Virus record (IMG/VR): IMGVR_UViG_2529292921_000020
DNA length: 43,121 nucleotides
Reading direction: 5' to 3' (one strand)
From: a virus
Taxonomy: Duplodnaviria > Heunggongvirae > Uroviricota > Caudoviricetes
In this document: positions 4,138-39,238 of the stretch, piece after piece
How the letters are laid out: every line of letters starts with the position of its first letter
How positions within the stretch are numbered: position 1 is the stretch's first letter
Notes under the pieces: model-generated
Told to the model about the DNA's origin: nothing
Database searches by the model: none
Seen by the model: the letters and a program-made list of their open reading frames with translations, nothing else
Position numbers and translations under genes: made by a program

Positions 4138-6193
<2,056 letters not shown>

Positions 6194-6840
6194 TTATTTA
6201 ATAGCTCCCGTTCGTGTTTTCTCTTGTTAATGGCATCTTCAGTAAATACAGGGTTACTGATAGTGACACCAATTTCAAAACAACCTTCAGACGTATTAAC
6301 GTTTGGTAATAACGTTTCCATTATCGCGTCCTCAACAATGAATTTTGTGATGTGGTGCCTGGTGCCTCCAGGTGACGTTAACCAGTTAACAATTAACGCC
6401 GGATACAGAGAATCCACCCATAACACTGTTTTTGGTTTTAACTGTTCCGCGTGCGCTCAGCCGCATTCACCGCATCACAAAATTCACTTTAAAAACGGCG
6501 GCAGAGCAGTCACGGAGTAAAACTGATACCGCCAAACGTCACCAGAAAATTGATAACAGAGGGCGTTGCAGCGGGGTTGTCGCTTAAGCGTATGGTCAAC
6601 CTGACAACCCGGTGTCCTCAACGGGGAAGGAATAACCCCGCCATACTTACCGCCGCGCCATTTCGCGGAGTGCCACAACCGGAAGCGCACGGTCGAACTA
6701 AATTTAACGACACCGTACAGAGAGACCAATTTCGCCGTGCGCTTTCGCGTTATGCCCTGACTTTTCAGGGACATATCCTTTCAGTAAACTGTCAGTGCCG
6801 GATGTTCACCCGTGTCCGGCGCACGCACTCCACCTGACCC

Positions 6841-7158
6841 GTGGAGAACTCCTTAATTACCAACCCTCAGGAGGGTGAAATGGATAAAAAGCAAATTGAG
6901 GCCCTGCAATCTATTATTGAAAAACAAGATGAAGCTATCAGGATTCTTTCATATCGCACTGATATGATACTAAATATGCTTTCTGCATTAACGGCTGCGC
7001 TTGGTGGTACAAAAACAAACGTATACCGCGAAGTTGTTATTCAACAGATAGATAAATTTGAAAAAACCATACCAGGTATTAATGCTCATCTTGCAGAACA
7101 AGAGAAAGACCATGCTCTTATGGCAATTTCTTCAGTAGCTCTCCCGAAAGTTGAGTAG
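6841..7158 (+). CDS. Hypothetical protein in AT-rich island
   Basis: 105-aa ORF, predicted helical/coiled-coil, strongly AT-rich codon usage unlike the surrounding phage genes; true start may be the internal Met (MDKKQIEAL). Confidence 0.4.
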   Translation: MENSLITNPQEGEMDKKQIEALQSIIEKQDEAIRILSYRTDMILNMLSALTAALGGTKTNVYREVVIQQIDKFEKTIPGINAHLAEQEKDHALMAISSVALPKVE

Positions 7159-7531
7159 TTTTAATTGTTGTTTTGAAATAATCACTGCTTTCACATTTGA
7201 GTGATTTCATGGCAATCCAAATGCGGGCCTCTGTGCCTGCATTTGGTTCCAGTTGCTGTAGACGTTTTGCGTCTTCCAAAAGTAAGGCGATAATGTGTTT
7301 CAGCTTCTCATCATTTGCTTGATTCTTGTTTTCAGGCGAATTCTGTCCGCCGAATAGGCGCTTCTCTTCATACAGACCTATAAAGGCACGACGCACGTTA
7401 CCGGATATAGTATCGATGGTTTCTTTTTCTACGGTACTCAGGTCAAGAGTCGCCAGTTGAGAGCGAACCACATTCGATGCCATTTCCTGGAATGGTACTG
7501 GTAAATCTTTAAATTCCATCGTCAACCTCAT
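7118..7531 (-). CDS. Hypothetical protein in AT-rich island, convergent with 6841-7158
   Basis: 137-aa ORF (probable start MEFKDLPV); no recognisable motif; occupies the kil/sieB position of Rac-like prophages. Confidence 0.4.
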   Translation of the reverse strand: MRLTMEFKDLPVPFQEMASNVVRSQLATLDLSTVEKETIDTISGNVRRAFIGLYEEKRLFGGQNSPENKNQANDEKLKHIIALLLEDAKRLQQLEPNAGTEARIWIAMKSLKCESSDYFKTTIKTTQLSGELLKKLP

Positions 7532-7764
7532 CAGTCAGTGTTTCTGGTTAACCAGCGACGCGCGCCAGCTTCAGTTTTAAACGTTTTGCTTCTGGTATAC
7601 GTCATCGCGGTAAACGTGCCGTCCTGGTTGGGGAACACGCCACATACCAGAGATTCGTTGTTGCCAAGATTGAGCATATCCATGTTGACCTCATTTCCCC
7701 TTAACGCCGGGGTAGCGGAACAAAAACCTGCTGCATAGTTATTAAAGTTGAACCCTGCCGTCAT
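7531..7764 (-). CDS. DUF1391-family small protein (YdaF-like)
   Basis: C-terminal 50 aa (MDMLNLGNNESLVCGVFPNQDGTFTAMTYTRSKTFKTEAGARRWLTRN) match my recollection of Rac YdaF; real start is probably the internal Met near 7683. Confidence 0.6.
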   Translation of the reverse strand: MTAGFNFNNYAAGFCSATPALRGNEVNMDMLNLGNNESLVCGVFPNQDGTFTAMTYTRSKTFKTEAGARRWLTRNTD

Positions 7765-7869
7765 GTTCTTACGCCTCGGGCTGGCTACTTAACCCCTGAC
7801 CACTGCCTGGTAACTCGAAGTATTGCCCTGCATTCTGTGGGGCGGGGTGGGTTGGTATGAAAAGAAGGA

Positions 7870-7906
7870 TACCCATAGGTATTTAAAAAGTAAATACCCA
7901 TGGGTA
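7870..7906. promoter_or_regulatory. OL-like operator pair: TACCCATAGGTA (7870-7881) and perfect palindrome TACCCATGGGTA (7895-7906)
   Basis: Two 12-bp dyad-symmetric sites 25 bp apart, between the 3' end of the leftward repressor gene and the leftward early genes. Confidence 0.5.
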
Positions 7907-7948
7907 AATTTTTGCGGGGTCTTAACTGGTGACTAGTTGTTTGGTGAG

Positions 7949-8367
7949 CTATGATGCGTTTTGTGCTTTCTTTTTACGGATTTCTTCGTAGATCATATTG
8001 TAATACTGTTTTTTCTCTTCAAGAGTTTTTAATAATTTATCCGCTTCACTTTCTGGCAGTTCGTCTAAGAGATCTAAAAAAATACGTTGTCGTGGCGTTA
8101 GAACCCTTGTTTCATAACTGGAGGCTGTGTTCGTTGATGATGAAACGATACCATCCATCCATCCCCGGGGTAACCCAAAGGACTCTTCGATAATCTCCAC
8201 CATATCATCAGCGATCCGTTTTTTCCCTTTTTCCCCTCTGGGTACAACATTCTTGATACATAAGAAGGCTCGCGCCCGATCTTTCTGGCCACGTTAACCG
8301 CTTTACCATCGCATTTCTCATCACGAATTTTGATGAGTTGCTGTCGTCTAAATTCATATTTGTCCAT
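7949..8367 (-). pseudogene. Leftward prophage repressor (RacR/DicA position, HTH N-terminus), split into two overlapping frames by an apparent frameshift in T6/T5 runs at about 8217-8230
   Basis: ORFs 8098-8367 (HTH-like ...AVNVARKIGREPSYVSRML...) and 7949-8203 overlap in different frames; both frames are open across the homopolymer tract, so a 1-nt indel would give one ~140-aa protein. Confidence 0.55.
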
Positions 8368-13964: not shown

Positions 13965-14304
13965 TTCCTTAATTTTCCCTTAACAATTTAGGGTGCTAAA
14001 CTTTTTTGCGCAGTTTACATAAAAAAATAGTGCGTACGCAAAAACTATCTAACATGATGAGCTTTAACCGGGAAATTTGTATATGTTGTGAGCATAAAGT
14101 TGGCTGAGAAATCTAAAACGGGTAGAATGACTGCGGGTGCTTGAGGCTATCTGTCTCAGGCATGAACACCAAAAGGCAGATAGAGAAAAGCCCCAGTTAA
14201 CATTACGCGTCCGGCAAGACGCTTAACATTAATCTGAGGCCATATCTATGCTCTACACACGTAGGTTAGCCTCTTACGTGCCGAAAGGCAAGGAGAAGCA
14301 GGCT

Positions 14305-14460
14305 ATGAAGCAGCAAAAGGCGATGTTAATCGCCCTGATCGTCATCTGTTTAACCGTCATAATGACGGCACTGGTAACGAGGAAAGACCTCTGCGAGGTA
14401 CGAATCCGAACCGGCCAGACGGAGGTCGCTGTCTTCACAGCTTACGAACCTGAGGAGTAA
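14305..14460 (+). CDS. hokD: Hok/Gef-family type I toxin (HokD/RelF-like), with overlapping upstream mok-like frame from 14248
   Basis: MKQQKAMLIALIVICLTVIMTALVTRKDLCEVRIRTGQTEVAVFTAYEPEE, near-identical to my recollection of E. coli HokD; upstream leader has inverted repeats (CTATCTG / CAGATAG). Confidence 0.8.
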   Translation: MKQQKAMLIALIVICLTVIMTALVTRKDLCEVRIRTGQTEVAVFTAYEPEE

Positions 14461-15967: not shown

Positions 15968-16327
15968 ATGCTCATAGATTTGGTTTTACCTTACCCGCCG
16001 ACGGTGAACACTTACTGGCGACGCCGTGGCAGCACATATTTTGTATCAAAAGTCGGTGAGCGTTATCGCCGTGATGTGGCGCTTATTGTTCGCCAGCAGC
16101 AACTGAAATTAAACCTGTCCGGAAGGCCGGCAATAGAAATTATTGCAGAGCCACCGGATAAGCGCCGTCGTGACCTGGACAATATCCTGAAGGCACCACT
16201 GGATGTACTGACGCATGCGGGGCTGCTCATAGACGACGAGCAGTTTGATGAAATTAATATTGTGCGCGGTCAGCTTGTTCCTGGTGGGCGGTTGGGGATA
16301 AAAATCACAGAACTGGAGTATGCATGA
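15968..16327 (+). CDS. rusA: Holliday junction resolvase RusA
   Basis: 119-aa ORF; conserved RusA motifs (RRRDLDNILKA, LIDDEQ, GGRLGIKITE). Confidence 0.85.
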   Translation: MLIDLVLPYPPTVNTYWRRRGSTYFVSKVGERYRRDVALIVRQQQLKLNLSGRPAIEIIAEPPDKRRRDLDNILKAPLDVLTHAGLLIDDEQFDEINIVRGQLVPGGRLGIKITELEYA

Positions 16328-17013
16328 ATAACCAGTATTTACAGTTTGTTCGTGAGCAACTCATGATTGCCACCGCCGATTTGAGTGGATCAACAAAAGG
16401 GCAGCTTGAGGCCTGGCAGGAGAATGCCATGTTTGATACAGGGCGTTACAGGCGTAAAAAAATCCGGTACCGCGATGAAGTGACTGGAAAAATGATAACG
16501 CGGGATAATCCACCAATCCCGGGAAAGCAATCGCTGGCGAAGGGGGCGTCAATTCCTCTCGTCAGTCCGGTTGAGTTTTTGACATCATCGTGGCGGCGGG
16601 CTGTTCTGTCTCTTGAAGAACATCATAAAGCCTGGTTGTTGTGGTGTTACAGCGGGAGTATTTGTTGGGAATATCAGATCGCGATAACACAGTGGGCGTG
16701 GAATGAATTTAATACTCAATCCGGTACCAGAAAAATTGCTGGGAAAACGCAGGAACGCCTGAAAAAATTAATCTGGCTGGCGGCGCAGGCAGTAAAAGCA
16801 GAACTTTTTGGTGGGGAAGGTTATGAATATCAGGAGCTGGCATTACTGGCGGGAGTGACAACTAAAAACTGGTCCAAAACATTTACTCGTCACTGGGTTG
16901 CAATGAAACACATTTTTCACCGACTGGATAGTGAGGCTTTATTATTTGTAATGAGAACACGTTCAAAACAAAAGGCGGCATTTTCAAAGCAAAGTGTTGC
17001 AAAAGTAGATTGA
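16324..17013 (+). CDS. Late-gene antitermination protein Q-like
   Basis: 229-aa ORF directly after rusA and before the promoter, terminator and tRNA-lysis region, the canonical Q position; family assigned by synteny. Confidence 0.6.
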   Translation: MNNQYLQFVREQLMIATADLSGSTKGQLEAWQENAMFDTGRYRRKKIRYRDEVTGKMITRDNPPIPGKQSLAKGASIPLVSPVEFLTSSWRRAVLSLEEHHKAWLLWCYSGSICWEYQIAITQWAWNEFNTQSGTRKIAGKTQERLKKLIWLAAQAVKAELFGGEGYEYQELALLAGVTTKNWSKTFTRHWVAMKHIFHRLDSEALLFVMRTRSKQKAAFSKQSVAKVD

Positions 17014-17077
17014 AAGGCATATATTTCATGCAAATCTGATATTTTGCCGATTTTGTACGTGATGGCAAAATCAAACA

Positions 17078-17104
17078 AAACCCGCCCACAAGCGGGTTTT
17101 TTTG
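17078..17104 (+). terminator. Rho-independent terminator downstream of Q (tR'-like)
   Basis: AAAACCCGCCCACAAGCGGGTTTTTTTG: GC stem plus T7 run. Confidence 0.65.
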
Positions 17105-17170
17105 TGCCACTTATCTCGGATAGACATGGTGAATGCGCTGGTGGAGGAGATAAGGGTGATTTTTGTATGC

Positions 17171-17199
17171 TTGCAACATTGATTTCGTAACGTTATTAT
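17171..17199 (+). promoter_or_regulatory. Sigma-70-like promoter upstream of the tRNA cluster
   Basis: -35 TTGCAA (17171-17176), 17-bp spacer, -10 TATTAT (17194-17199), about 10 bp before tRNA 1. Confidence 0.55.
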
Positions 17200-17208
17200 C
17201 CTGCGCCC

Positions 17209-17284
17209 GGCCCTTTAGCTCAGTGGTGAGAGCGAGCGACTCATAATCGCCAGGTCGCTGGTTCAAATCCAGCAAGGGCCACCA
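17209..17284 (+). tRNA. tRNA with CAT anticodon (Met or lysidine-modified Ile2; ileZ-like position), CCA encoded
   Basis: Hand-folded cloverleaf: acceptor GGCCCTT / AAGGGCC, anticodon loop CTCATAA, T-loop TTCAAAT, 3' ACCA. Confidence 0.8.
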
Positions 17285-17285
17285 A

Positions 17286-17361
17286 CCGCCACTAGCCATC
17301 AGGAAAGAGCGTCAACCCTTTAAGTTGAGTGTGCGAGGTTCGAGTCCCCGGTGGTGGTCCA
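17286..17361 (+). tRNA. tRNA-like gene with atypical D-arm and anticodon loop (argN-like position); anticodon uncertain
   Basis: Acceptor CCGCCAC / GTGGTGG (one G-U), T-arm CGAGG-TTCGAGT-CCCCG, 3' TCCA; anticodon loop reads CCTTTAA with C at position 33. Confidence 0.5.
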
Positions 17362-17374
17362 TTATCGGTATTCT

Positions 17375-17448
17375 GCGTTGTTAGCTCAGCAGGACAGAGC
17401 AATTGCCTTCTAAGCAATCGGTCACTGGTTCGACTCCAGTACAACGCG
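17375..17448 (+). tRNA. tRNA-Arg (anticodon TCT, reads AGA); CCA not encoded
   Basis: Acceptor GCGTTGT / ACAACGC, D-arm AGCTCAGCAGGACAGAGC, anticodon loop CTTCTAA, T-loop TTCGACT. Confidence 0.8.
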
Positions 17449-17576
17449 CTACACTTATTTTCCCGGCTCGCTTTTGCGGGCCTTTTTTTTAAATGTCTCA
17501 CAATTCAGACGGTTGACAGTTGTCTGTTTTGCGGGGAGTTTGTTAAGTAAGCGACTCGTCAGAACCGTATTGATAT

Positions 17577-19148
17577 TTACTGAGAGCTCAGATCAACTTT
17601 CCAGGGCAACAGATCGCGTACCCGGTTTGCCGGCCAGTCCTGGATATGTTCAATGACGTAACGCAGCCACTTTTCTGGCTCCACATTGTTCAGACGGCAT
17701 GTGCCGATCAGCGAGTACAACACCGCCGCATGTTCACCACCGCTGTCGGAACCCGCGAACATCCAGTTTTTCCGGCCTACGGCCACTCCCCGTAAGGCGT
17801 TCTCTGCGATGTTGTTGTCGATTTCCACCCAGCCATTACTGCAGTACACGTTCAGTGCATCCCACTGTTTCAGCAGGTATGCGAACGCTTTTGCCGTATC
17901 TGAGTGACGCGACAGTGTTTTCATCTGTTGCTGTATCCAGTCATACAGTGACTGCATCAGTGGCGCGGCTCTGGCTTTTCTTGCCGCCAGACGCTGTTCT
18001 GCTGAACAGCACCGGACCTCTGCCTCGATGGCATACAGTTCACCGATACGCTGCAGGGCTTCCGTGGTGATGTAGGTGGGCGCTCTTGCATGCACATCGT
18101 GGATTTTTCTCCGGGCATGAGCCATACACGCGGCTTCCGTTATTCTGCCGGATTCGTATAACGCCCGGTAACCACCGTAAGCATCGGCCTGAAGCACACC
18201 GCTGTAACCGGCCAGGTGATTTTGTGGATGGATACCTTTCCGGTCCGGACTGTACGCGAACCAGACCGCCGGGGGCATCTGTGAACCGGCGTTACGGTCA
18301 TCACGGACGTAGACCCACAGCCGGGCTGTCCGGGTTTTACCGCTGCCCGGCTCCTGGACCGGGACGGGGATATCATCAGCATGGACTTTACCGGGCATCA
18401 GCACATACTGGCGCAGGACGTCATACAGCGGCTCCAGCAGTTCAGCAACAGCACCTGTCCAGCGCCCCAGTGTGGCACGGCTCAGCTCCACGCCCTGACG
18501 ACGGTATATTTCTGACTGGCGGTATAACGGCAGATGGTCTGCATATTTCCCGGTGACAACATGGGCCAGAAGCCCCGCTCCGGCATAACTGCGTGCAATG
18601 GGTTTTGAAGGTACTGGTGCCTGCACGATATGGTCGCACCGGCAACAGGCCTGTTTCGGACGTTGTGTTTCGATAACCTTAAAGGCGCTGCTGATAAGCT
18701 CCAGTTGCTCTGACACATCACATCCCAGAGAACTGAGTTCACCACCACAGGCAGGACAGCATTCCTCTTCCGGCCGGATAACCCGGGTTTCACGGGGAAG
18801 TGAGGCCGGTAACGGTTTACGGGCTGAAGACTGGCGCAGGGCGGATGGCAGTACCGGGTCATATTGCTCACCCAGCGTTTCCGCCATTTCTTCCTGAAGT
18901 GCGCTGATTCGCTCCTGTGCTTCCTGTATCTGCCGTTCGGTTTTTGCACGAAGTTTTTCTGAGCTTTTACCGAACTGCATACGTTGCAGTTTCGCAACCA
19001 GCGCCTTCAGCCGGTTGATTTCGGAAGCATAAGCCGCCACCCGCTGTGAGAGCAGGCGGTTGTATTCAGCCATCTGGCGGATGGTGTCCTGTTGCGTCTG
19101 CAACAGTGCCCGCAGGCGGGCGTTCTCATGAGCAAGTGAGGTGTCCAT
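17577..19148 (-). CDS. IS66-family transposase (TnpC)
   Basis: 523-aa ORF with N-terminal coiled coil, Cys-rich zinc-binding region and DDE core typical of IS66 transposases. Confidence 0.85.
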
Positions 19149-19167
19149 ATCCTCACTTTACAACGGG

Positions 19168-19515
19168 TTATATGCGGATTCCAGCGCGTTCCGTTCGTTT
19201 CGGGTGCTTCCAGTTGATACCTTCAAGAAGCATGGATAACTGAGCCGGAGTAAGGTGCACCTTGCCGTCACGGGTGACTGGCCAGACGAAGCGGCCCCGC
19301 TCCAGGCGTTTGGTGAAGAGGCACAGTCCGTCACTGTCAGCCCACAACACTTTTATCTGGTCACCCCGGCGTCCGCGGAAGATGAACAGGTGTCCGGAGA
19401 ACGGGTCATCCTTCAGGACGTTCTGAACTTTTGATGCCAGGCCGTTAAAGCCATTTCGCATATCGGTGATACCTGCAACCAGCCAGATACGCGAACCTGC
19501 AGGGAGAGATATCAT
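19168..19515 (-). CDS. IS66 accessory protein TnpB (Orf2)
   Basis: 115-aa ORF MISLPAGSRIWLVAGITDMRNGFNGL..., characteristic IS66 Orf2. Confidence 0.8.
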   Translation of the reverse strand: MISLPAGSRIWLVAGITDMRNGFNGLASKVQNVLKDDPFSGHLFIFRGRRGDQIKVLWADSDGLCLFTKRLERGRFVWPVTRDGKVHLTPAQLSMLLEGINWKHPKRTERAGIRI

Positions 19516-20192
19516 CAGTGGCTGCTCCCTTTTATTTCGCGGATAAGTGTCTGTAATAACGCCGGCGTCAGTTTACCTTTAAGCCTGAGAGTTCCGGCCG
19601 GCAGAACCAGCTCACAACACAGACTGTCGGACGGTGTATTTATCTGCTCTGGTTCCTGTGCGGGGGCCGGGATTTTATTATCCGGCTCCGGCGTTAACGT
19701 CACGGGAAGCAGTGCCGGCATATTTTTTCCGGAAGGCAGCAGGCCACCTTTCCGGTATTGATGGCGCCAGTTGAAGAGCAGGTTATCGTTGATTCCGTTT
19801 TCCCGGGCGATCTGCGCCACACAGGCTCCGGGCTGCAGTGACTGCTCCACTAAGGCGATTTTAAACTCATAAGGGAAGTTGGGCCGCCGGGGACGTTTTT
19901 TTACCACGGGGGCTTCGGATATAACGGTGCTTTCAGGACGTACGACTGGTACCGTGGAAAATTGTCCGTAAAGGCAGGCATCAAGTTCCTGCTCCGACAT
20001 GCCTGCGGGCAAAGGCCACGAAAGGCCAGCTCTCCGAAAGCGCACGAACATACTACAAACTGTTGATTTTGGTACACCCAGGCGACGCCCGGCCACAACC
20101 CGGGGTAAATGTTCTTCAAAGTGAAGACGTAAAGCTTCAGTGATCCAGGTCCGGTGTTTCATACGATAGTGTCCATTAAAAATGATGGACAT
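19515..20192 (-). CDS. IS66 accessory protein TnpA (Orf1)
   Basis: 225-aa ORF with N-terminal HTH, first gene of the IS66 operon, coupled to TnpB. Confidence 0.7.
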   Translation of the reverse strand: MSIIFNGHYRMKHRTWITEALRLHFEEHLPRVVAGRRLGVPKSTVCSMFVRFRRAGLSWPLPAGMSEQELDACLYGQFSTVPVVRPESTVISEAPVVKKRPRRPNFPYEFKIALVEQSLQPGACVAQIARENGINDNLLFNWRHQYRKGGLLPSGKNMPALLPVTLTPEPDNKIPAPAQEPEQINTPSDSLCCELVLPAGTLRLKGKLTPALLQTLIREIKGSSH

Positions 20193-20646
20193 TATTTTTG
20201 TAGAGCCGGAGGAAACAGACCAGACGGTTTAAATGAGCCGGTTACTTTGTTAAAAGAAACTGGCATGGTGAATCCCCCTGTGCGGAGGGGCAATCAGCGA
20301 GTAGGTATATGGGATAATCGCGGATTCAGGTGCTGGTACTGAATTCACCGGGAGGCACCCGGCACCATGCAATGGCACATAGCGCCACTCTCCAGCCCCT
20401 CTCCGGAGGGGCTTTCTTATGGACAAAAAAAGCCCGCGCAGGGAGACGCGGGCGGCAAGGAATAAACAACAAAACGTGAAGTAATATTTCAGCTGGCGAA
20501 TAATATCCGACAGTAATCACTCTGCGCAATAGCGCGGCCTTTTTCGTATTGCGGACTGTTGTCTCTCTTCTGCCATTGTCCTGTAACTTCCGGACTTCAG
20601 CCCGCTCCTCATTTTACTCACAATATTATCCCGGCCGGGAGGATTC

Positions 20647-22500
20647 ATGGCATTTAAATACTATGATGTTGTCAGGGCGGCGTCGCCGTCAGACCTTGCG
20701 GAAAAGCTGACACATAAACTGAAAGAGGGCTGGCAGCCGTTTGGTAGTCCGGTGGCCATAACCCCTTATACCCTGATGCAGGCGATTGCAGCAGAAGGTG
20801 ATGTGGTCGTCAGTGGTGCAACTGAGCCGGACTGGTTCTACGTGGTTGTGCTTGCCGGACAGTCCAACGGCATGGCCTACGGTGAAGGGCTTCCGTTACC
20901 GGATTCTTACGATGCTCCGGATCCGCGCATTAAACAGCTGGCGCGCCGCAGCACGGTAACTCCGGGTGGAGAGAGTTGTACGTATAACGACATCATCCCG
21001 GCTGACCACTGTCTGCATGATGTGCAGGATATGAGTACGCTGAATCATCCGAAGGCAGACCTGAGCAAAGGGCAGTACGGCTGTGTCGGCCAGGGCTTAC
21101 ATATTGCCAAAAAACTGCTCCCGTATATCCCGAATAACGCGGGGATCCTGCTGGTACCATGCTGTCGTGGTGGTTCGGCATTCACCCAGGGCGCGGAGGG
21201 GACATTCAGTGCGGACGCGGGGGCCAGCCAGGATTCGGCGCGCTGGGGGGTGGGTAAACCGTTATATCAGGACCTGATTGCGCGCACTAAAGCTGCATTA
21301 CAGAAGAACCCGAAAAATGTGTTGCTGGCGGTGTGCTGGATGCAGGGAGAGTTTGACATGAGCGCCGCCACCTACGCACAGCAACCTGCGCTGTTTACAG
21401 CCATGCTGAAGCAGTTTCGTGCTGACCTCACTGTGTTTAACGCGCAGTGTCATGGTGGCAGTGCTGTAAATGTGCCGTGGATTTGTGGTGACACGACGTA
21501 TTACTGGAAAAATACATACGCTACCCAGTACGACACCGTGTACGGCGGGTATAAAAACAGGGAGAGTGAGGGCGTTTATTTTGTGCCCTTCATGACAGAC
21601 GGTAACGGCGTCAATACCGCCACTAACGCACCGGCAGAAGATCCGGATATTCCGGCATCAGGATATTACGGTGCGGCATCGAGAACGAATGGAAACCAGG
21701 TATCATCAAACCGCCCGACACATTTCAGTTCATGGGCGCGCAGGAGCATTATTCCGGATCGTATGGCAACCGCTATTCTGAACGCAGCCGGGCGCACCTC
21801 AGCTTTCATCAGTGGTAAGGCACCGGAAATCAAACCCTCGCCCGGCGGCAACACGCCATCGGGGCCGTCTGAAGATGCATCCGTACGCACAATCTCCCTG
21901 TTGCCGACAGCCGGAGAGGCTGCTGCGCAGGGCTGGACCATTAAGGACGGCGGAATTCAGTTGTCGGGTGGTGTATTTAAGATCGCCAAGCAGAGCAATA
22001 AAACCTGGTCCCTGATGCATCCGGTGGATGACGCAGTCTCCCTGCTGACACGGGGTGGCAGACTGAGCTGTAAGTTTCGACTGTCAGGCGCACTGACCAA
22101 CAACCAGTTCGGCCTGGGAATTTATCTGTATACCGATGTAGCGTTACCTGACGTCGTGGCGATGACCGGGACTGGTAACCCGTTCCTGATGTCGTTCTTC
22201 ACCCAGACCACAGACGGCAAACTGAATCTGATGCATCACAAGAAAGCAGGAAACACAAAGTTGGGCGAGTTCGGGAATTACAGTAATGACTGGCAGACGC
22301 TGGAACTGGTGTTCACCGCCGGCAGTGCCACGGTTACTCCGAAACTGAATGGAGTGGCTGGCCCGGCATTCCAGGTCATAAAAGACAGTCTGACACTGGG
22401 GCTGAATGCGCTGACGCTGACGGATATTACCAAAAATGCAGCGTATGGCGTTGAGATAGAAAGTCTGGTGCTGGAGATAAATGCACCGGCATCATCATAA
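20647..22500 (+). CDS. nanS: Phage NanS-p-like sialate O-acetylesterase (DUF1737 N-terminus plus SGNH-type hydrolase)
   Basis: 617-aa ORF; N-terminus MAFKYYDVVRAASPSDLAEKL..., esterase block VVLAGQSNGMAYGEG; sits downstream of the Q-tRNA region where Stx phages carry this gene after stxAB. Confidence 0.7.
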   Translation: MAFKYYDVVRAASPSDLAEKLTHKLKEGWQPFGSPVAITPYTLMQAIAAEGDVVVSGATEPDWFYVVVLAGQSNGMAYGEGLPLPDSYDAPDPRIKQLARRSTVTPGGESCTYNDIIPADHCLHDVQDMSTLNHPKADLSKGQYGCVGQGLHIAKKLLPYIPNNAGILLVPCCRGGSAFTQGAEGTFSADAGASQDSARWGVGKPLYQDLIARTKAALQKNPKNVLLAVCWMQGEFDMSAATYAQQPALFTAMLKQFRADLTVFNAQCHGGSAVNVPWICGDTTYYWKNTYATQYDTVYGGYKNRESEGVYFVPFMTDGNGVNTATNAPAEDPDIPASGYYGAASRTNGNQVSSNRPTHFSSWARRSIIPDRMATAILNAAGRTSAFISGKAPEIKPSPGGNTPSGPSEDASVRTISLLPTAGEAAAQGWTIKDGGIQLSGGVFKIAKQSNKTWSLMHPVDDAVSLLTRGGRLSCKFRLSGALTNNQFGLGIYLYTDVALPDVVAMTGTGNPFLMSFFTQTTDGKLNLMHHKKAGNTKLGEFGNYSNDWQTLELVFTAGSATVTPKLNGVAGPAFQVIKDSLTLGLNALTLTDITKNAAYGVEIESLVLEINAPASS

Positions 22501-22650
22501 AAAGTGAGCCAGCCAAATGGAAGGTATCGTTAAACTCACCGGTAGTGTCAGTGGGTCGTCTGAGATGCCTGCATGAGTTATCAGAGCCATCAGTACTTAA
22601 CTGGTGGCTTTTTTTATTGTTGTCAGCTTCCGGATAACGGGAGACGGGGT

Positions 22651-22866
22651 ATGGACCAGATGGAAAAAATCACAACAGGTGTGTCATACACCACGTCAGC
22701 GGTGGGAACGGGCTACTGGTTCCTGCAGTTGCTGGACAGGGTTTCCCCGTCTCAGTGGGCGGCAATAGGCGTGCTGGGGAGTCTGCTGTTTGGGCTGCTG
22801 ACATATCTGACTAACCTGTATTTCAAAATCAGAGAGGACCGTCGTAAGGCGGCACGGGGAGAGTAA
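22651..22866 (+). CDS. S: Pinholin (S21-like class II holin), possible dual start MDQM
   Basis: About 71 aa with two TM segments and charged C-terminus (...[22 protein letters not shown]); ORF-track N-terminal extension overlaps a terminator-like hairpin, so the start is placed at 22651 or 22660. Confidence 0.8.
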
Positions 22867-23284: not shown

Positions 23285-23818
23285 ATGAACGCAAAAATCA
23301 GATACGGCCTGTCGGCTGCCGTTCTGGCGCTGATTGCCGCTGGTGCGCCTGCGCCTGACATTCTCGACCAGTTTCTGGATGAAAAGGAAGGTAACCACAC
23401 CACGGCATACCGTGATGGCGCGGGTATCTGGACCATCTGCCGCGGTGCCATCCTGGTGGATGGCAAACCTGTCGTTCCGGGCATGAAGTTGTCGAAGGAA
23501 AAATGCGACCGGGTTAACGCCATTGAGCGTGATAAGGCGCTGGCATGGGTGGAGAAAAACATCAAAGTGCCATTGACCGAACCCCAGAAAGCGGGGATCG
23601 CGTCATTCTGTCCGTACAACATTGGTCCCGGTAAGTGTTTCCCGTCGACGTTTTACAGACGAATTAATGCAGGTGATCGCAGGGGAGCATGCGAAGCGAT
23701 TCGCTGGTGGATTAAGGACGGTGGCAGAGACTGCCGTATTCGCTCAAATAACTGTTACGGTCAGGTATTCCGTCGTGACCAGGAGAGCGCGCTGGCGTGC
23801 TGGGGAATCGACAGATAA
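23285..23818 (+). CDS. R: SAR-endolysin (phage lysozyme, R21-like)
   Basis: 177-aa ORF; N-terminal signal-anchor-release segment (LSAAVLALIAAGAPA) followed by lysozyme catalytic region (E...D...T context). Confidence 0.85.
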   Translation: MNAKIRYGLSAAVLALIAAGAPAPDILDQFLDEKEGNHTTAYRDGAGIWTICRGAILVDGKPVVPGMKLSKEKCDRVNAIERDKALAWVEKNIKVPLTEPQKAGIASFCPYNIGPGKCFPSTFYRRINAGDRRGACEAIRWWIKDGGRDCRIRSNNCYGQVFRRDQESALACWGIDR

Positions 23819-23910
23819 GCAGAATATTTTGCTGAAAAATGAGGTTGGCCAACGCGGGCGGATAACACGAAGTCCTGTGAACTGGCAAAACCTAAGTGAA
23901 TAAAAGTAAA

Positions 23911-23947
23911 AACCCCGTTTGTTGGCAGCAAGCGGGGTTTTGTTTTT
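23911..23947 (+). terminator. Terminator-like GC hairpin with T-run downstream of R
   Basis: AACCCCGTTTGTTGGCAGCAAGCGGGGTTTTGTTTTT. Confidence 0.5.
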
Positions 23948-24012
23948 ATGGCAGTAAGCTATGGGAGGCTGCCTTGATTGATTTTAGCAAACTGATTAGG
24001 GAGTTGCGACTC

Positions 24013-24459
24013 ATGATTAGTCAATTACCAAACTGGAAATTTTTGCTGGTCTGGAGCATCCCTTTTTTATGGGTAGTATCCCAGTTAATTGTGGCAATTA
24101 AGGGGTAGCTATGTCAGACAAACTCATAACGCCGGCAAAGGTCCTGTGTGTGATTGTCGGTATTTCATTTTCACTAATGCTGGTTGCTCTTTTTCTGTCC
24201 CTCGCCTGGGTGATGTTGTCTTCGTCGGGGCTGCTGGGGTGACAGTGACTGATGACATCAGCAGAGCGCTGGCTTTTGCTATTAAGTGGGTGGCTGTTGG
24301 TATTGCTGTGTCTCCGATGCTGTATGGGCTGGCAAAACTGGTCATTGCGCTGAAATCGTGAACTTTAAAAAGATGAGTGCTGAACTTATTCGGGCAATGG
24401 CATTTGCCATTCGTATTGTGGCCATTGCTGTTCTGGTCTGGGCAATCCGTTGGTGGTGA
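24013..24459 (+). other. Tandem array of four small hydrophobic peptide ORFs (24013-24108, 24111-24242, 24245-24361, 24373-24459; 31, 43, 38 and 28 aa)
   Basis: Back-to-back ORFs each encoding one predicted TM helix; ORF3 (TDDISRALAFAIKWVAVGIAV...) and ORF4 ([20 protein letters not shown]...) are clearly paralogous; ORF2 begins MSDKLI. Confidence 0.4.
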
Positions 24460-24460
24460 T

Positions 24461-24955
24461 ATGAACCGTGTTCTGTGTGTGGTGATTATTGTCATGCTGG
24501 TAGCCTGTGGTGTGCTTAGTCTGGGGCTGAATCATTACCGCGATAACGCCATCACCTACAAAGCGCAGCGCGATAAAAAAGTCAGTGAGCTGAAACTGGC
24601 GAATGCCACTATTACTGACATGCAGCAGCGCCAGCGAGATGTCGCTGCGCTTGATGCCAGATACACGAAGGAATTAGCCGATGCGAGAGCTGAAAATGAA
24701 ACTCTGCGCGCTGATGTTGCCGCTGGTCGTAAGCGCCTGCGGGTCAACGCCACCTGCCCCGGTACCGTGCGTGAAGCCACCGGCACCTCCAGCGTGGATA
24801 ATGCAACCGGCCCCCGACTGGCAGACACCGCTGAACGGGATTATTTCATCCTCAGAGAACGGTTGATGACAATGCAGAAGCAGCTGGAAGGGGCGCAGGA
24901 ATATATCCGCACTCAGTGCACTAAGCTGGCTTTTTATTATCCGGAGGATACATGA
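24461..24955 (+). CDS. Rz: Spanin inner-membrane subunit Rz
   Basis: About 165 aa from [19 protein letters not shown]-terminal TM then coiled-coil periplasmic domain; Rz1 is embedded in the +1 frame. Confidence 0.8.
24696..24866 (+). CDS. Rz1: Spanin outer-membrane lipoprotein subunit Rz1 (embedded in Rz)
   Basis: [15 protein letters not shown] lipobox followed by a Pro-rich mature peptide, entirely within the Rz coding region. Confidence 0.75.
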
Positions 24956-37812: not shown

Positions 37813-39238
37813 TAATGCCAGTCAGTTAAGCAACTGACTGGCTCTTTTTCGGGGCTGTGGGGTATTTCCAGGGCCTCTCCTTTACCACTCTCGGGAAGGC
37901 CCTTTCCCTTCTTGTCGGTAATTTCACAAGTTGTCCCATACTTGCAAGATCGCGCATCAGCTCCGGTATACGTCCCGGTGAAGCGCCCTGCAATGTCATC
38001 AGCATTCTCATCACCATTCCGCATGATTCTGAGAAACTCAGTTGATTCGGCCAGTAACCTTTCAGATGTTCCGCCATTTTAATCATCTGATATCTCACCA
38101 GATTATAAGCCAGTAAGACACCCCACAGCTCTTGCTCCACAAGCTCCGGCTTTTTACTTCTCAGCGTCAGCCTGCTCCGTTGCATCGTCTGTTTTATCTC
38201 CCTGTATCCCAGTTCGATTTCCCAGCGATGACTGTACAGATCCCCCATTTCTCCTCCGGGGAAGCGCATGGCGTCCGTCATCGACGTCAGCAGATGGCAG
38301 ACTTTTCCTTTGCGCGTCACGGTCAGCAGGCGGGCAGTCACTTCATTTCCCAGTCCCGGCCACTTTTTTCGTGCCTGCGGGCTGGTTTTCAGCTTCACCA
38401 GATGATCGCCTTTACCCAGTTTTCTGATCTCTTCATATTGCGCTCCCTTTCTGAGAGGTATCATCCAGTGGCGGTGTTCTCCCGCCAGGCTCCAGGCATT
38501 TAACAGTCCCAGTGAGTAATAACCTTTATCCATTAACGTCAGAGTGTTATCGCCGGTTTGTTCTATAAGTTGCTCAGCAAGCTCATTTTCGCTGTTCTTC
38601 ATCGTGCCGAAGGCTGCAGCCGTCAGCAGATGGCTGGTCAGTTCCATCTGGCAGACCATTTTGACCTGCGGGTAGAGCGCCGGGTTCCCGGCATGTGTCT
38701 GGCGGGGGAAGGCTGCATCGTTCTCTGGTGTATCCGGTGTGCGCCAGAACACACCATCGATGGCCAGCAGGGTCAGGCCGCACCAGTGCGGATGCGGCGT
38801 GGCGTTATGCCAGAGCTGCGCTGTTTTCGTGAACACGCGGCGGACAGCCTCACTTCCCAGGCGCTGGCGGGCCTGAATAACGGCACTGGGGGCAACGAAG
38901 GGGCGATTGCCCGGCAGCATGATGTCCAGGCGATTCACAATCTGGTGAAGAGGTTCTTTACGCTCAAGCGCCATGCCAACAATACACCAGACCATCATTT
39001 CGAGGGGAAGACGGCGCTTGCGTAGCGTTACAGTACCTGATTCGGCAAGGCAACGAGAGATGAGTTCGGGGTCGAGGTAATCCCCCAGAGAAGTCAGTGG
39101 GTTACGCAGAGAATCGTAACGGGATACCAGATCAAGAGCCTGTCCAATGTGCATAAAAAAATCCGGAAACAAGTGAGCGTTTCCGGATTCTTACACAGCC
39201 ACTGGATCGGTCAACTGATCCTTAACTGATCGGCATTA
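37813..39238 (-). mobile_element. IS4, 1426 bp, flanked by 12-bp direct repeat GAACCGCTGAGG
   Basis: Termini TAATGCC... and ...GGCATTA; GAACCGCTGAGG at 37801-37812 and 39239-39250; element length matches IS4. Confidence 0.9.
37826..39154 (-). CDS. insG: IS4 transposase InsG
   Basis: Translation from [30 protein letters not shown]... matches my recollection of E. coli K-12 InsG; the ORF-track start at 39172 is 6 codons upstream of the likely true start. Confidence 0.9.

Follow-up and report, generated by a model that had tools for sequence, protein, structure and literature searches.

An ISCro1-type IS66 insertion sequence in the toxin-free late region of a PP6-like lambdoid prophage of Escherichia coli

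Introduction

The late regions of many lambdoid prophages of Escherichia coli are built on a common plan, in which the gene of the antiterminator Q and the late promoter PR' are followed by a slot for moron genes, a pair of convergent small RNA (sRNA) genes, the sialate O-acetylesterase gene nanS-p and the lysis genes. In 933W and Sp5, the order reads Q, ileZ/argN/argO, stx2AB, STnc100/EcOnc27 and AsxR, nanS-p, S, R and Rz; in Sp5 and seven other Sakai prophages, the moron slot lies 3' of PR' and the convergent sRNA genes come next, before a conserved open reading frame (ORF) (Tree et al. 2014, PMC4104026). The same layout occurs in many prophages other than those of the Shiga toxin (Stx) phages (PMC4104026, PMC10462455), and nanS-p itself has been reported from non-Stx prophages (PMC10462455). 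In Stx2a phages, the interval from stx to nanS-p has also been found to contain insertion sequences (ISs), namely IS1203/IS629 and, in phage F451, ISEc8, which belongs to the IS66 family (PMC10462455). The present report deals with an IS66-family element of the ISCro1 type that occupies the corresponding late interval in IMG/VR virus record IMGVR_UViG_2529292921_000020 (Caudoviricetes), the entire stretch of which, 43,121 nucleotides in length, is referred to below as the window.

The window very probably represents a PP6-like lambdoid prophage of the type found in strain E2348/69, in the toxin-free late region of which an ISCro1-type IS66 element became inserted by ordinary DDE transposition. 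All the parts involved are already known, i.e., prophage PP6, ISCro1, the moron slot with its convergent sRNAs, the STnc100/PasD RNAs, NanS-p, and the presence of ISs in the stx to nanS-p interval. The particular insertion site is the sole novelty, and the event is an ordinary and strain-specific one. Compared with the insertions described in Stx2a phages, that of the window falls in the same late interval and the IS66 family is represented on both sides, but those phages carry stx2a, and both the type of IS and the exact site differ (PMC10462455). Protein families were assigned with Pfam and NCBIfam, tRNAs with ARAGORN, RNA families with Rfam, and promoters and terminators by consensus and hairpin scans; all genome comparisons refer to a set of 5426 complete E. 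coli genomes.

The IS66-family element and its empty site

The element, its genes and the repeats that border it are organized as follows:

17547-20245, minus strand: IS66-family insertion sequence (ISCro1-type) of 2699 bp, with intact tnpA, tnpB and tnpC
17577-19148, minus strand: tnpC, DDE transposase of 523 aa (PF03050, PF13817, PF13007 and PF13005; NF033517, 475.7 bits)
19168-19515, minus strand: tnpB, accessory protein of 115 aa (PF05717; NF033819)
19515-20192, minus strand: tnpA, accessory protein of 225 aa (NF038385, 295.8 bits; HTH_Tnp_1)
17539-17546, unstranded: left copy of the target-site duplication, TTTGTTAA, present as a single copy in E2348/69
20246-20253, unstranded: right copy of the target-site duplication, TTTGTTAA, adjoining the right end of the IS

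The three consecutive genes tnpA, tnpB and tnpC, the last with a DDE_Tnp_IS66 domain, exceed the cut-offs of NF038385, NF033819 and NF033517, respectively, and display the gene content typical of the IS66 family. Terminal inverted repeats of the family are equally present, with a left end reading GTAAGCGACTCG... and a right end reading, as the reverse complement, GTAACCGGCTCA...; they are imperfect, GTAAGCG... on the left facing GTAACCG... on the right, with 17 of the first 26 positions equal. The ISCro1 type is represented in 1493 of the 5426 genomes by copies that cover 80% or more of the element; a copy in CP035884 is 100% identical to it, and others are at least 99% identical. Three further ISCro1 copies that were inspected all measure 2699 bp and are bordered by 8-bp duplications of unrelated sequence. 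The element of the window thus shares its length, its genes, its GTAAGCG-type ends and its 8-bp duplication with the ISCro1-type elements of E. coli, from which it differs in the insertion site alone. ISCro1-type elements are common in E. coli and presumably active.

The site without the element is seen in prophage PP6 of E. coli O127:H6 E2348/69. By direct alignment, E2348/69 is 100% identical to window 16300-17546, 20246-20285 and 20278-22600, and lacks the IS66 element. The segments 16300-17546 and 20246-20285, separated by the element in the window, are contiguous in E2348/69, where TTTGTTAA occurs only once and marks the exact pre-insertion site. Since E2348/69 offers this exact empty site with a single copy of TTTGTTAA, the 8-bp repeat flanking the element, as expected for an IS66-family insertion, is a duplication and not a chance repeat. 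Neither the left nor the right junction of the element with the prophage was found in any of the 5426 complete genomes, so that the insertion is strain-specific.

The toxin slot and the absence of stx

The position of the toxin genes was located by a blastn alignment of an IS-free reconstruction of the window to 933W, which delineates an empty slot and the backbone segment beyond it:

17491-17494, unstranded: empty moron (stx) slot, the left block of the alignment ending at 17491 and the right block beginning at 17494
17494-17538, plus strand: backbone segment that adjoins the 3' side of stxB in Stx1 and Stx2 phages, containing the putative -35 box of an STnc100-family sRNA

To the left of the slot, window 17171-17491 is 87% identical to the tRNA promoter, the tRNAs and the post-tRNA terminator of 933W. 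To its right, the homology restarts at 17494, from 42 nt past the stop codon of stx2B, and runs over the IS site up to 20371 with 72% identity. The 1332 bp lying in between in 933W, which comprise the stx2 promoter, stx2A, stx2B and 41 further nt, are represented in the window by the 2 nt 17492-17493. Among the Stx2a phages of the phage collection, the reconstruction was matched solely from the 17494 point onward, and the same backbone segment is found some 60 nt after stx1B in the Stx1 phage H-19B. In other alleles, the moron slot is filled with stx1 or stx2 (toxin phages) or with TerB/DUF3927 genes. The edges of the stx2 cassette relative to the empty allele are thereby defined at the base level, which may help in the design of polymerase chain reactions on the stx flanks.

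The stxA and stxB genes, which characterize the Shiga-toxin-converting lambdoid phages, are lacking. A tblastn search of the whole window with Stx1A/B and Stx2A/B (word size 2, E<=10) gave a best E of 0.08, which is noise, and a blastn search of the whole window with the stx2 cassette (word size 7) returned noise alone. The toxin-free and IS-free allele, contiguous from tRNA-Arg to nanS-p, is widespread, being found in 968 of the 5426 genomes at up to 99% identity (98-99%), with carriers that include O55:H7, O104:H4, O157:H7, O26, O111 and O145 strains. Because the IS-free allele of E2348/69 is devoid of stx and the same allele occurs in these 968 genomes, the toxin genes were absent before the IS came. 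The IS66 element has not displaced any stx genes, the pre-insertion allele being already toxin-free.

Most of what a first-pass annotation, made from the window alone, had claimed about this locus is upheld. It had described a complete IS66-family element with an 8-bp duplication, which the Pfam/NCBIfam genes, the inverted repeats, the TTTGTTAA repeat and the empty site all bear out; it had reported no stxAB-like ORFs, in agreement with the tblastn and blastn noise; and it had considered that the toxin genes were missing before the IS arrived, as the E2348/69 allele and the 968 genomes confirm. The flanks 17449-17546 and 20254-20646, in which remnants of stx would by its own account have refuted it, hold no stx-derived sequence, just backbone DNA that also borders stx1 and stx2 in toxin phages, and the alignment to stx2 phages that it had suggested puts the empty slot, with 933W as the reference, at 17491/17494. 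Its statement that the IS sits at the toxin position has to be amended, however, for the point of entry of the IS, 17546/17547, is 53 bp away from the slot on its downstream side.

A different history of the slot deserves consideration, namely that the prophage descends from a Shiga toxin phage whose stxAB genes were deleted, perhaps with the help of an IS, in which case the slot would be a scar instead of a site that was never filled. The homology of both sides of the junction to the stx2 flanks of 933W (87% for the left side and 72% for the right) is compatible with such an origin, as is the right segment, starting from CACAATTCAG, which in other cases is located immediately 3' of stx1B and stx2B; moreover, a short imperfect direct repeat, TATATCTG and TAATCTG, lies at the edges of the cassette in 933W and could mediate a deletion. 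An IS-mediated deletion was nevertheless rejected: the two target duplications are intact, which excludes a deletion adjacent to the IS, and 53 bp separate the slot junction from the element. No remnant of the stx promoter or coding sequence is left, the toxin-free allele is shared at 98-99% identity by the 968 genomes of many serotypes, and stx has been viewed as a moron added at the slot (PMC4104026). Descent by deletion is accordingly regarded as unlikely. Any ancient clean loss of stx would be unlinked to the IS66 element; we give little credit to such a loss, which is made less likely by how widely the empty allele is distributed. The two 933W repeats, TATATCTG and TAATCTG, found at 1410-1416 and 2738-2744 of the retrieved locus, may be a chance match or the trace of a gain or loss of the cassette.

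Two convergent sRNA genes in the leader

Once the IS and one copy of the repeat are removed, 490 bp separate the end of tRNA-Arg from the start of nanS-p. The first-pass annotation had estimated about 0.5 kb of non-coding residue; the length and the lack of protein-coding genes are correct, but the segment is not featureless, as it harbours two sRNA genes:

20263-20424, plus strand: STnc100/PasD-family sRNA gene (Rfam RF02076, 137.3 bits, hit 20234-20424), with a terminator at 20394-20421
20425-20606, minus strand: Hfq-bound sRNA 'E2348C_1409.E2348C_1408.IGR' (NC_011601, 1444797-1444978, minus strand), its coordinates converted through a 100% identical alignment

What looked like 0.5 kb of non-coding DNA beside the toxin slot thus corresponds to a known convergent sRNA locus. 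The plus-strand RNA ends near 20424 and the minus-strand RNA runs from 20606 to 20425, with the two terminators back to back, which is the arrangement of the convergent pair at the lambdoid moron site.

The match of the plus-strand gene to RF02076 spans model positions 1-206 and lies far above the gathering threshold of 47 bits. Its first 12 aligned nt consist of IS sequence, at unpaired positions of low information, and the structured core is intact; the uninterrupted O55:H7 allele scores 137.7 bits. The conserved core starts at CATGGTGAATCC alike in the empty, Stx1, Stx2 and TerB/DUF3927-type alleles. STnc100 itself has been located about 75 nt 3' of stx2 (PMC12370729), and its homologues have been detected in Hfq, RIL-seq and outer membrane vesicle (OMV) studies (PMC8550237, PMC12370729). 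The sRNA of the window and PasD1, PasD2 and STnc100 (PMC8550237; bioRxiv 10.64898/2026.05.13.724894) belong to the same covariance family, lie upstream of a prophage sialate esterase and share the 5' core GCAUGGUGAAUCC; they differ in that the copy of the window is a canonical STnc100 (137 bits) and PasD2 scores 41 bits, in their seed regions, and in the promoter region, which is split by the IS in the window.

The 5' end was placed by means of PasD2, the homologue from prophage PP2 of E2348/69 (741157-741328), for which RNA-seq coverage gave estimated ends that agree with the size of the Northern band (PMC8550237, table S6). The PasD2 start, GCATGGTGAATCC, aligns to window 20263, from which we infer that the STnc100-family RNA begins at about this position, the end of the IS lying 17 nt upstream. 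The putative promoter would consist of a -35 box TTGTCT at 17520-17525 and a -10 box TTAAAA retained beside the right copy of the duplication, with the IS now lying between them. The perfect TTGACA at 17513-17518 was discarded as a -35 box: it would stand 24 nt from the sole plausible -10, and the weaker TTGTCT, with a spacer of 17 nt, agrees more closely with the layout of the PasD2 promoter. At 20280-20378 on the minus strand (5832-5930 of the retrieved E2348/69 locus), and likewise in O55:H7 RM12579, PGAP calls a 'partial hypothetical protein' pseudogene; it runs antisense to the STnc100-family RNA and is most probably a false prediction made over an RNA gene. No homologue of PasA was found in the gap of about 150 bp that separates nanS-p from the holin gene.

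The minus-strand RNA is a candidate from Hfq RIL-seq data, with EcOnc08/21/42 as homologues and partners that include the 5' untranslated regions of cfa and dppA, and tir (PMC8550237, table S6). It possesses a strong terminator at 20453-20425 and a promoter-like site at 20653-20625. Apart from a sub-threshold 'anti-hemB' match, Rfam returned nothing on the minus strand of the leader.

Some observations weigh against this reading of the leader. The 5' end of the plus-strand RNA was taken from a diverged homologue, since PasD2 reaches only 41 bits with the STnc100 model, and the proposed -35 and -10 boxes are weak (4/6 and 3/6, respectively) and escaped the consensus scan. As for the minus strand, the models of the anti-sRNAs AsxR and AgvB (RF02703 and RF02702), a family recognized by its sequence and structure and by some 42 conserved nt at the 3' end, gave no match with E<=1 when both strands of 16800-22700 were searched. 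The minus-strand RNA is comparable with AsxR and AgvB in position, and is not a demonstrated member of their family.

Predicted consequences of the insertion

An intact 2699-bp ISCro1-type IS66 element transposed into TTTGTTAA by ordinary DDE transposition, with duplication of the 8 bp. Its point of entry lies 53 bp past the empty slot and precedes the presumed start of the STnc100-family RNA by 17 nt. From this arrangement, the following consequences can be proposed. The promoter region of this RNA would be split, its core being cut off from the putative -35 box, and its structured core and the convergent sRNA would be left intact. In addition, 2.7 kb of antisense-oriented IS would now stand between PR' and the tRNAs on one side, and nanS-p and the lysis genes on the other. 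As is well established for lambda, RNA polymerase modified by Q is resistant to terminators, and Q-modified read-through over the IS may therefore still take place. A hybrid promoter directed outward, made up of TTTAAA at the end of the IS (20228-20233), a spacer of 16 nt and TTAAAA, is conceivable. The transposition of ISCro1 probably altered the expression of one sRNA and lengthened the late leader.

Possible recurrence of insertions at the slot boundary

The idea may be put forward that the insertion was adaptive or targeted, in that it silenced the sRNA, uncoupled the lysis genes from PR' in the course of domestication, or struck a hot spot. E2348/69 provides an argument in favour of it. 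Its copy of ISEc13, an IS4-family element, lies 32 bp beyond the IS66 site, with a duplication equivalent to window 20278-20285, and breaks the first hairpin (CCCCCTGTGCGG|AGGGG) of the STnc100-family gene (window 20285/20286; 4280-5829 of the retrieved locus), so that two unrelated ISs have entered the same small gene of sister prophages 32 bp apart. ISCro1 also occurs between the tRNAs and the holin gene in strain DE17, inside nanS-p in ML775, and between nanS-p and the holin gene in 01_3327, and ISs between stx and nanS-p have been described in Stx2a phages (PMC10462455). However, the DE17, ML775 and 01_3327 cases were retrieved with a query that held both the IS and the late region, and represent a biased sample; the four ISCro1 target sequences have no common consensus; ISs have entered unrelated places of the prophage as well, in line with a general IS activity; and the allele is uninterrupted in 968 genomes. 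An adaptive or targeted insertion is thus held to be improbable. There is likewise only a slight chance that, in PP6-like prophages, ISs have repeatedly and independently entered the STnc100-family gene at its promoter and 5' end, at the boundary of the slot; such a recurrence could reflect selection for silencing the sRNA, selection against the coupling of nanS-p and the lysis genes to the Q-dependent late promoter (domestication), or a local hot spot.

A target-site consensus for ISCro1 was sought in the four copies and abandoned: the T-rich, post-hairpin character common to the sites of the window and of DE17 is absent from the other two. In E. coli DE17, as in the avian pathogenic strain IMT5155, ISCro1 lies between a cluster of four tRNAs and the holin gene (5432-8151 of the retrieved locus) of a related prophage with the same Q and no nanS-p, and its duplication, TTTTCTTT, comes directly after a terminator hairpin.

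That the IS and its flanking repeat might be an artefact of assembly or a chance repeat, as the restriction of both junctions to this single sequence might suggest, is scarcely credible, because the element has the canonical 2699 bp and its excision along with one of the 8-bp copies yields a sequence that matches E2348/69 at 100%, a precision at the base level not expected of a misassembly.

The late region and its likeness to Stx phages

Upstream of the slot, the late region comprises Q, two promoters, two terminators and the tRNA cluster:

16324-17013, plus strand: late antiterminator Q of 229 aa (PF06323, Pfam E 3.5e-91)
16997-17025, plus strand: putative late promoter PR' (TTGCAA-17-TATATT) from the consensus scan, overlapping the end of Q and placed like the annotated pR' of 933W
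17077-17106, plus strand: tR'-like intrinsic terminator downstream of PR', a hairpin with 83% identity to the annotated 933W terminator upstream of the tRNA genes
17171-17199, plus strand: pT-like tRNA promoter (TTGCAA-17-TATTAT) from the scan, aligned with the annotated pT of 933W
17209-17284, plus strand: tRNA with a CAU anticodon, homologue of ileZ (ARAGORN; Rfam tRNA, 72.5 bits; tRNA-Ile in the PGAP annotation of E2348/69)
17286-17361, plus strand: degenerate middle tRNA, positional homologue of 933W argN (ARAGORN Lys-UUU, with C at position 33)
17375-17449, plus strand: tRNA-Arg (UCU), homologue of argO (ARAGORN, Rfam and 933W alignment)
17465-17490, plus strand: intrinsic terminator after the tRNAs, a hairpin forming the left edge of the moron slot, its homologue in 933W being the annotated terminator ahead of stx

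The identification of 16997-17025 as PR' is tentative and is based on the promoter scan and on its position. The middle tRNA, which gave no Rfam tRNA match at E<=1 over 17286-17361 and is unannotated in E2348/69, is probably a decayed homologue of argN.

Downstream of the sRNA pair come nanS-p and the lysis cassette:

20647-22500, plus strand: nanS-p, prophage sialate O-acetylesterase of 617 aa (DUF1737, SASA and DUF6645; 53% identity to 933W p42)
22651-22866, plus strand: class II (P21 S-type) holin (PF04971), with the start taken from the E2348/69 annotation
23285-23818, plus strand: endolysin (phage lysozyme, PF00959), with an Ala/Gly-rich hydrophobic segment at its N-terminus
24461-24955, plus strand: Rz spanin (PF03245), with Rz1 (PF06085) embedded at 24681-24866 and the start taken from the E2348/69 annotation

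The assignment to NanS-p follows from a SASA catalytic domain flanked by an N-terminal DUF1737, which is specific to the prophage esterases, and a C-terminal DUF6645, all over their cut-offs. A DUF1327 protein is encoded between the holin and the lysozyme. From the endolysin to Rz, at 23819-24460, there are several small overlapping ORFs with hydrophobic segments; three tiny hypothetical proteins are annotated in this interval in E2348/69, and the same position is occupied by ant in 933W.

The window resembles 933W/Sp5 in its tRNA cluster, the post-tRNA terminator, the STnc100-family RNA, the position of the minus-strand sRNA, nanS-p (53%), the P21-type holin, the lysozyme and Rz/Rz1 (PMC4104026), and differs from them by the lack of stxAB, a Q of an unrelated family, a minus-strand sRNA that is not AsxR-like in sequence, and the presence of the IS66 element. 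The late order Q, tRNAs, slot, nanS-p, holin, endolysin, Rz/Rz1 is respected; being common to many non-Stx prophages, it has no discriminating value. The Q proteins of 933W and H-19B belong to PF06530, and a BLASTP comparison with the Q of the window (PF06323) found nothing (E 23), so that the latter is not of the 933W/H-19B type. Other types of Q also occur in Stx phages, and the 933W/H-19B Q is thus not strictly a defining feature (PMC10462455). Because of the unrelated Q, the term 'Stx-phage-type' is limited to the late module: it fits the tRNA, slot, sRNA, nanS-p and lysis module and not the regulator Q. The first-pass annotation, which had applied the term to the late region as a whole, gave the gene order correctly and used a label that is too specific for a generic lambdoid layout; it also missed the identity of the prophage with PP6 of E2348/69, four IS differences apart.

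A PP6-type prophage with four IS differences

The whole window corresponds to prophage PP6 of E. coli O127:H6 E2348/69 (NC_011601, approximately 1,427,475-1,470,000), with 99.9% identity over the alignable part. Both prophages possess Q, the tRNAs, the empty moron slot, the sRNA pair, nanS-p, the lysis cassette and the head and tail genes. Four IS differences distinguish them, consisting of the IS66 element and three more:

4138-6091: IS21-family element (istA 4224-5246, istB 5243-6025), near the dicB/DUF1482 region in an extra segment, absent from PP6 of E2348/69
33960-35511: ISEc13 copy (IS4 family) in the head-closure/HK97-gp10 gene region, 99.8% identical to the copy of E2348/69
about 37813-39234: element of the IS4/IS421 type, encoding a 448-aa transposase on the minus strand (37826-39172) and situated just ahead of the tape-measure gene, with the tail-assembly genes on its other side, absent from PP6

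The IS66, IS21-family and IS4/IS421 elements are all lacking in PP6 of E2348/69 and present in the window, whereas ISEc13 resides in the STnc100-family gene in the former and in the head-gene region in the latter. Owing to the ISEc13 and IS4 copies of the head and tail region, the formation of phage particles has probably been lost, regardless of any effect of the IS66 element on late transcription.

The significance of these results lies mainly in annotation, the window being a toxin-free element of the PP6 type and not the decayed remains of an Stx phage. As a strain-specific marker, the insertion could be of use in typing lineages of enteropathogenic E. coli resembling O127:H6, and it adds one more data point on the traffic of ISs in the interval between Q and the holin gene of lambdoid prophages.

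Outside the late region, the Rfam sok family matches the nin region at 14135-14310 (117 bits) and, together with a 70-aa ORF at 14248-14460, marks a type I toxin-antitoxin locus, the equivalent of which is annotated as hokD in E2348/69. The DicF antisense RNA is matched at 6496-6547 on the minus strand (72.5 bits), adjoining the dicB region. Finally, a 162-bp unit is repeated in about 3.7 tandem copies (88-91% identity) at 32232-32825, within a long gene annotated as the portal protein in E2348/69.

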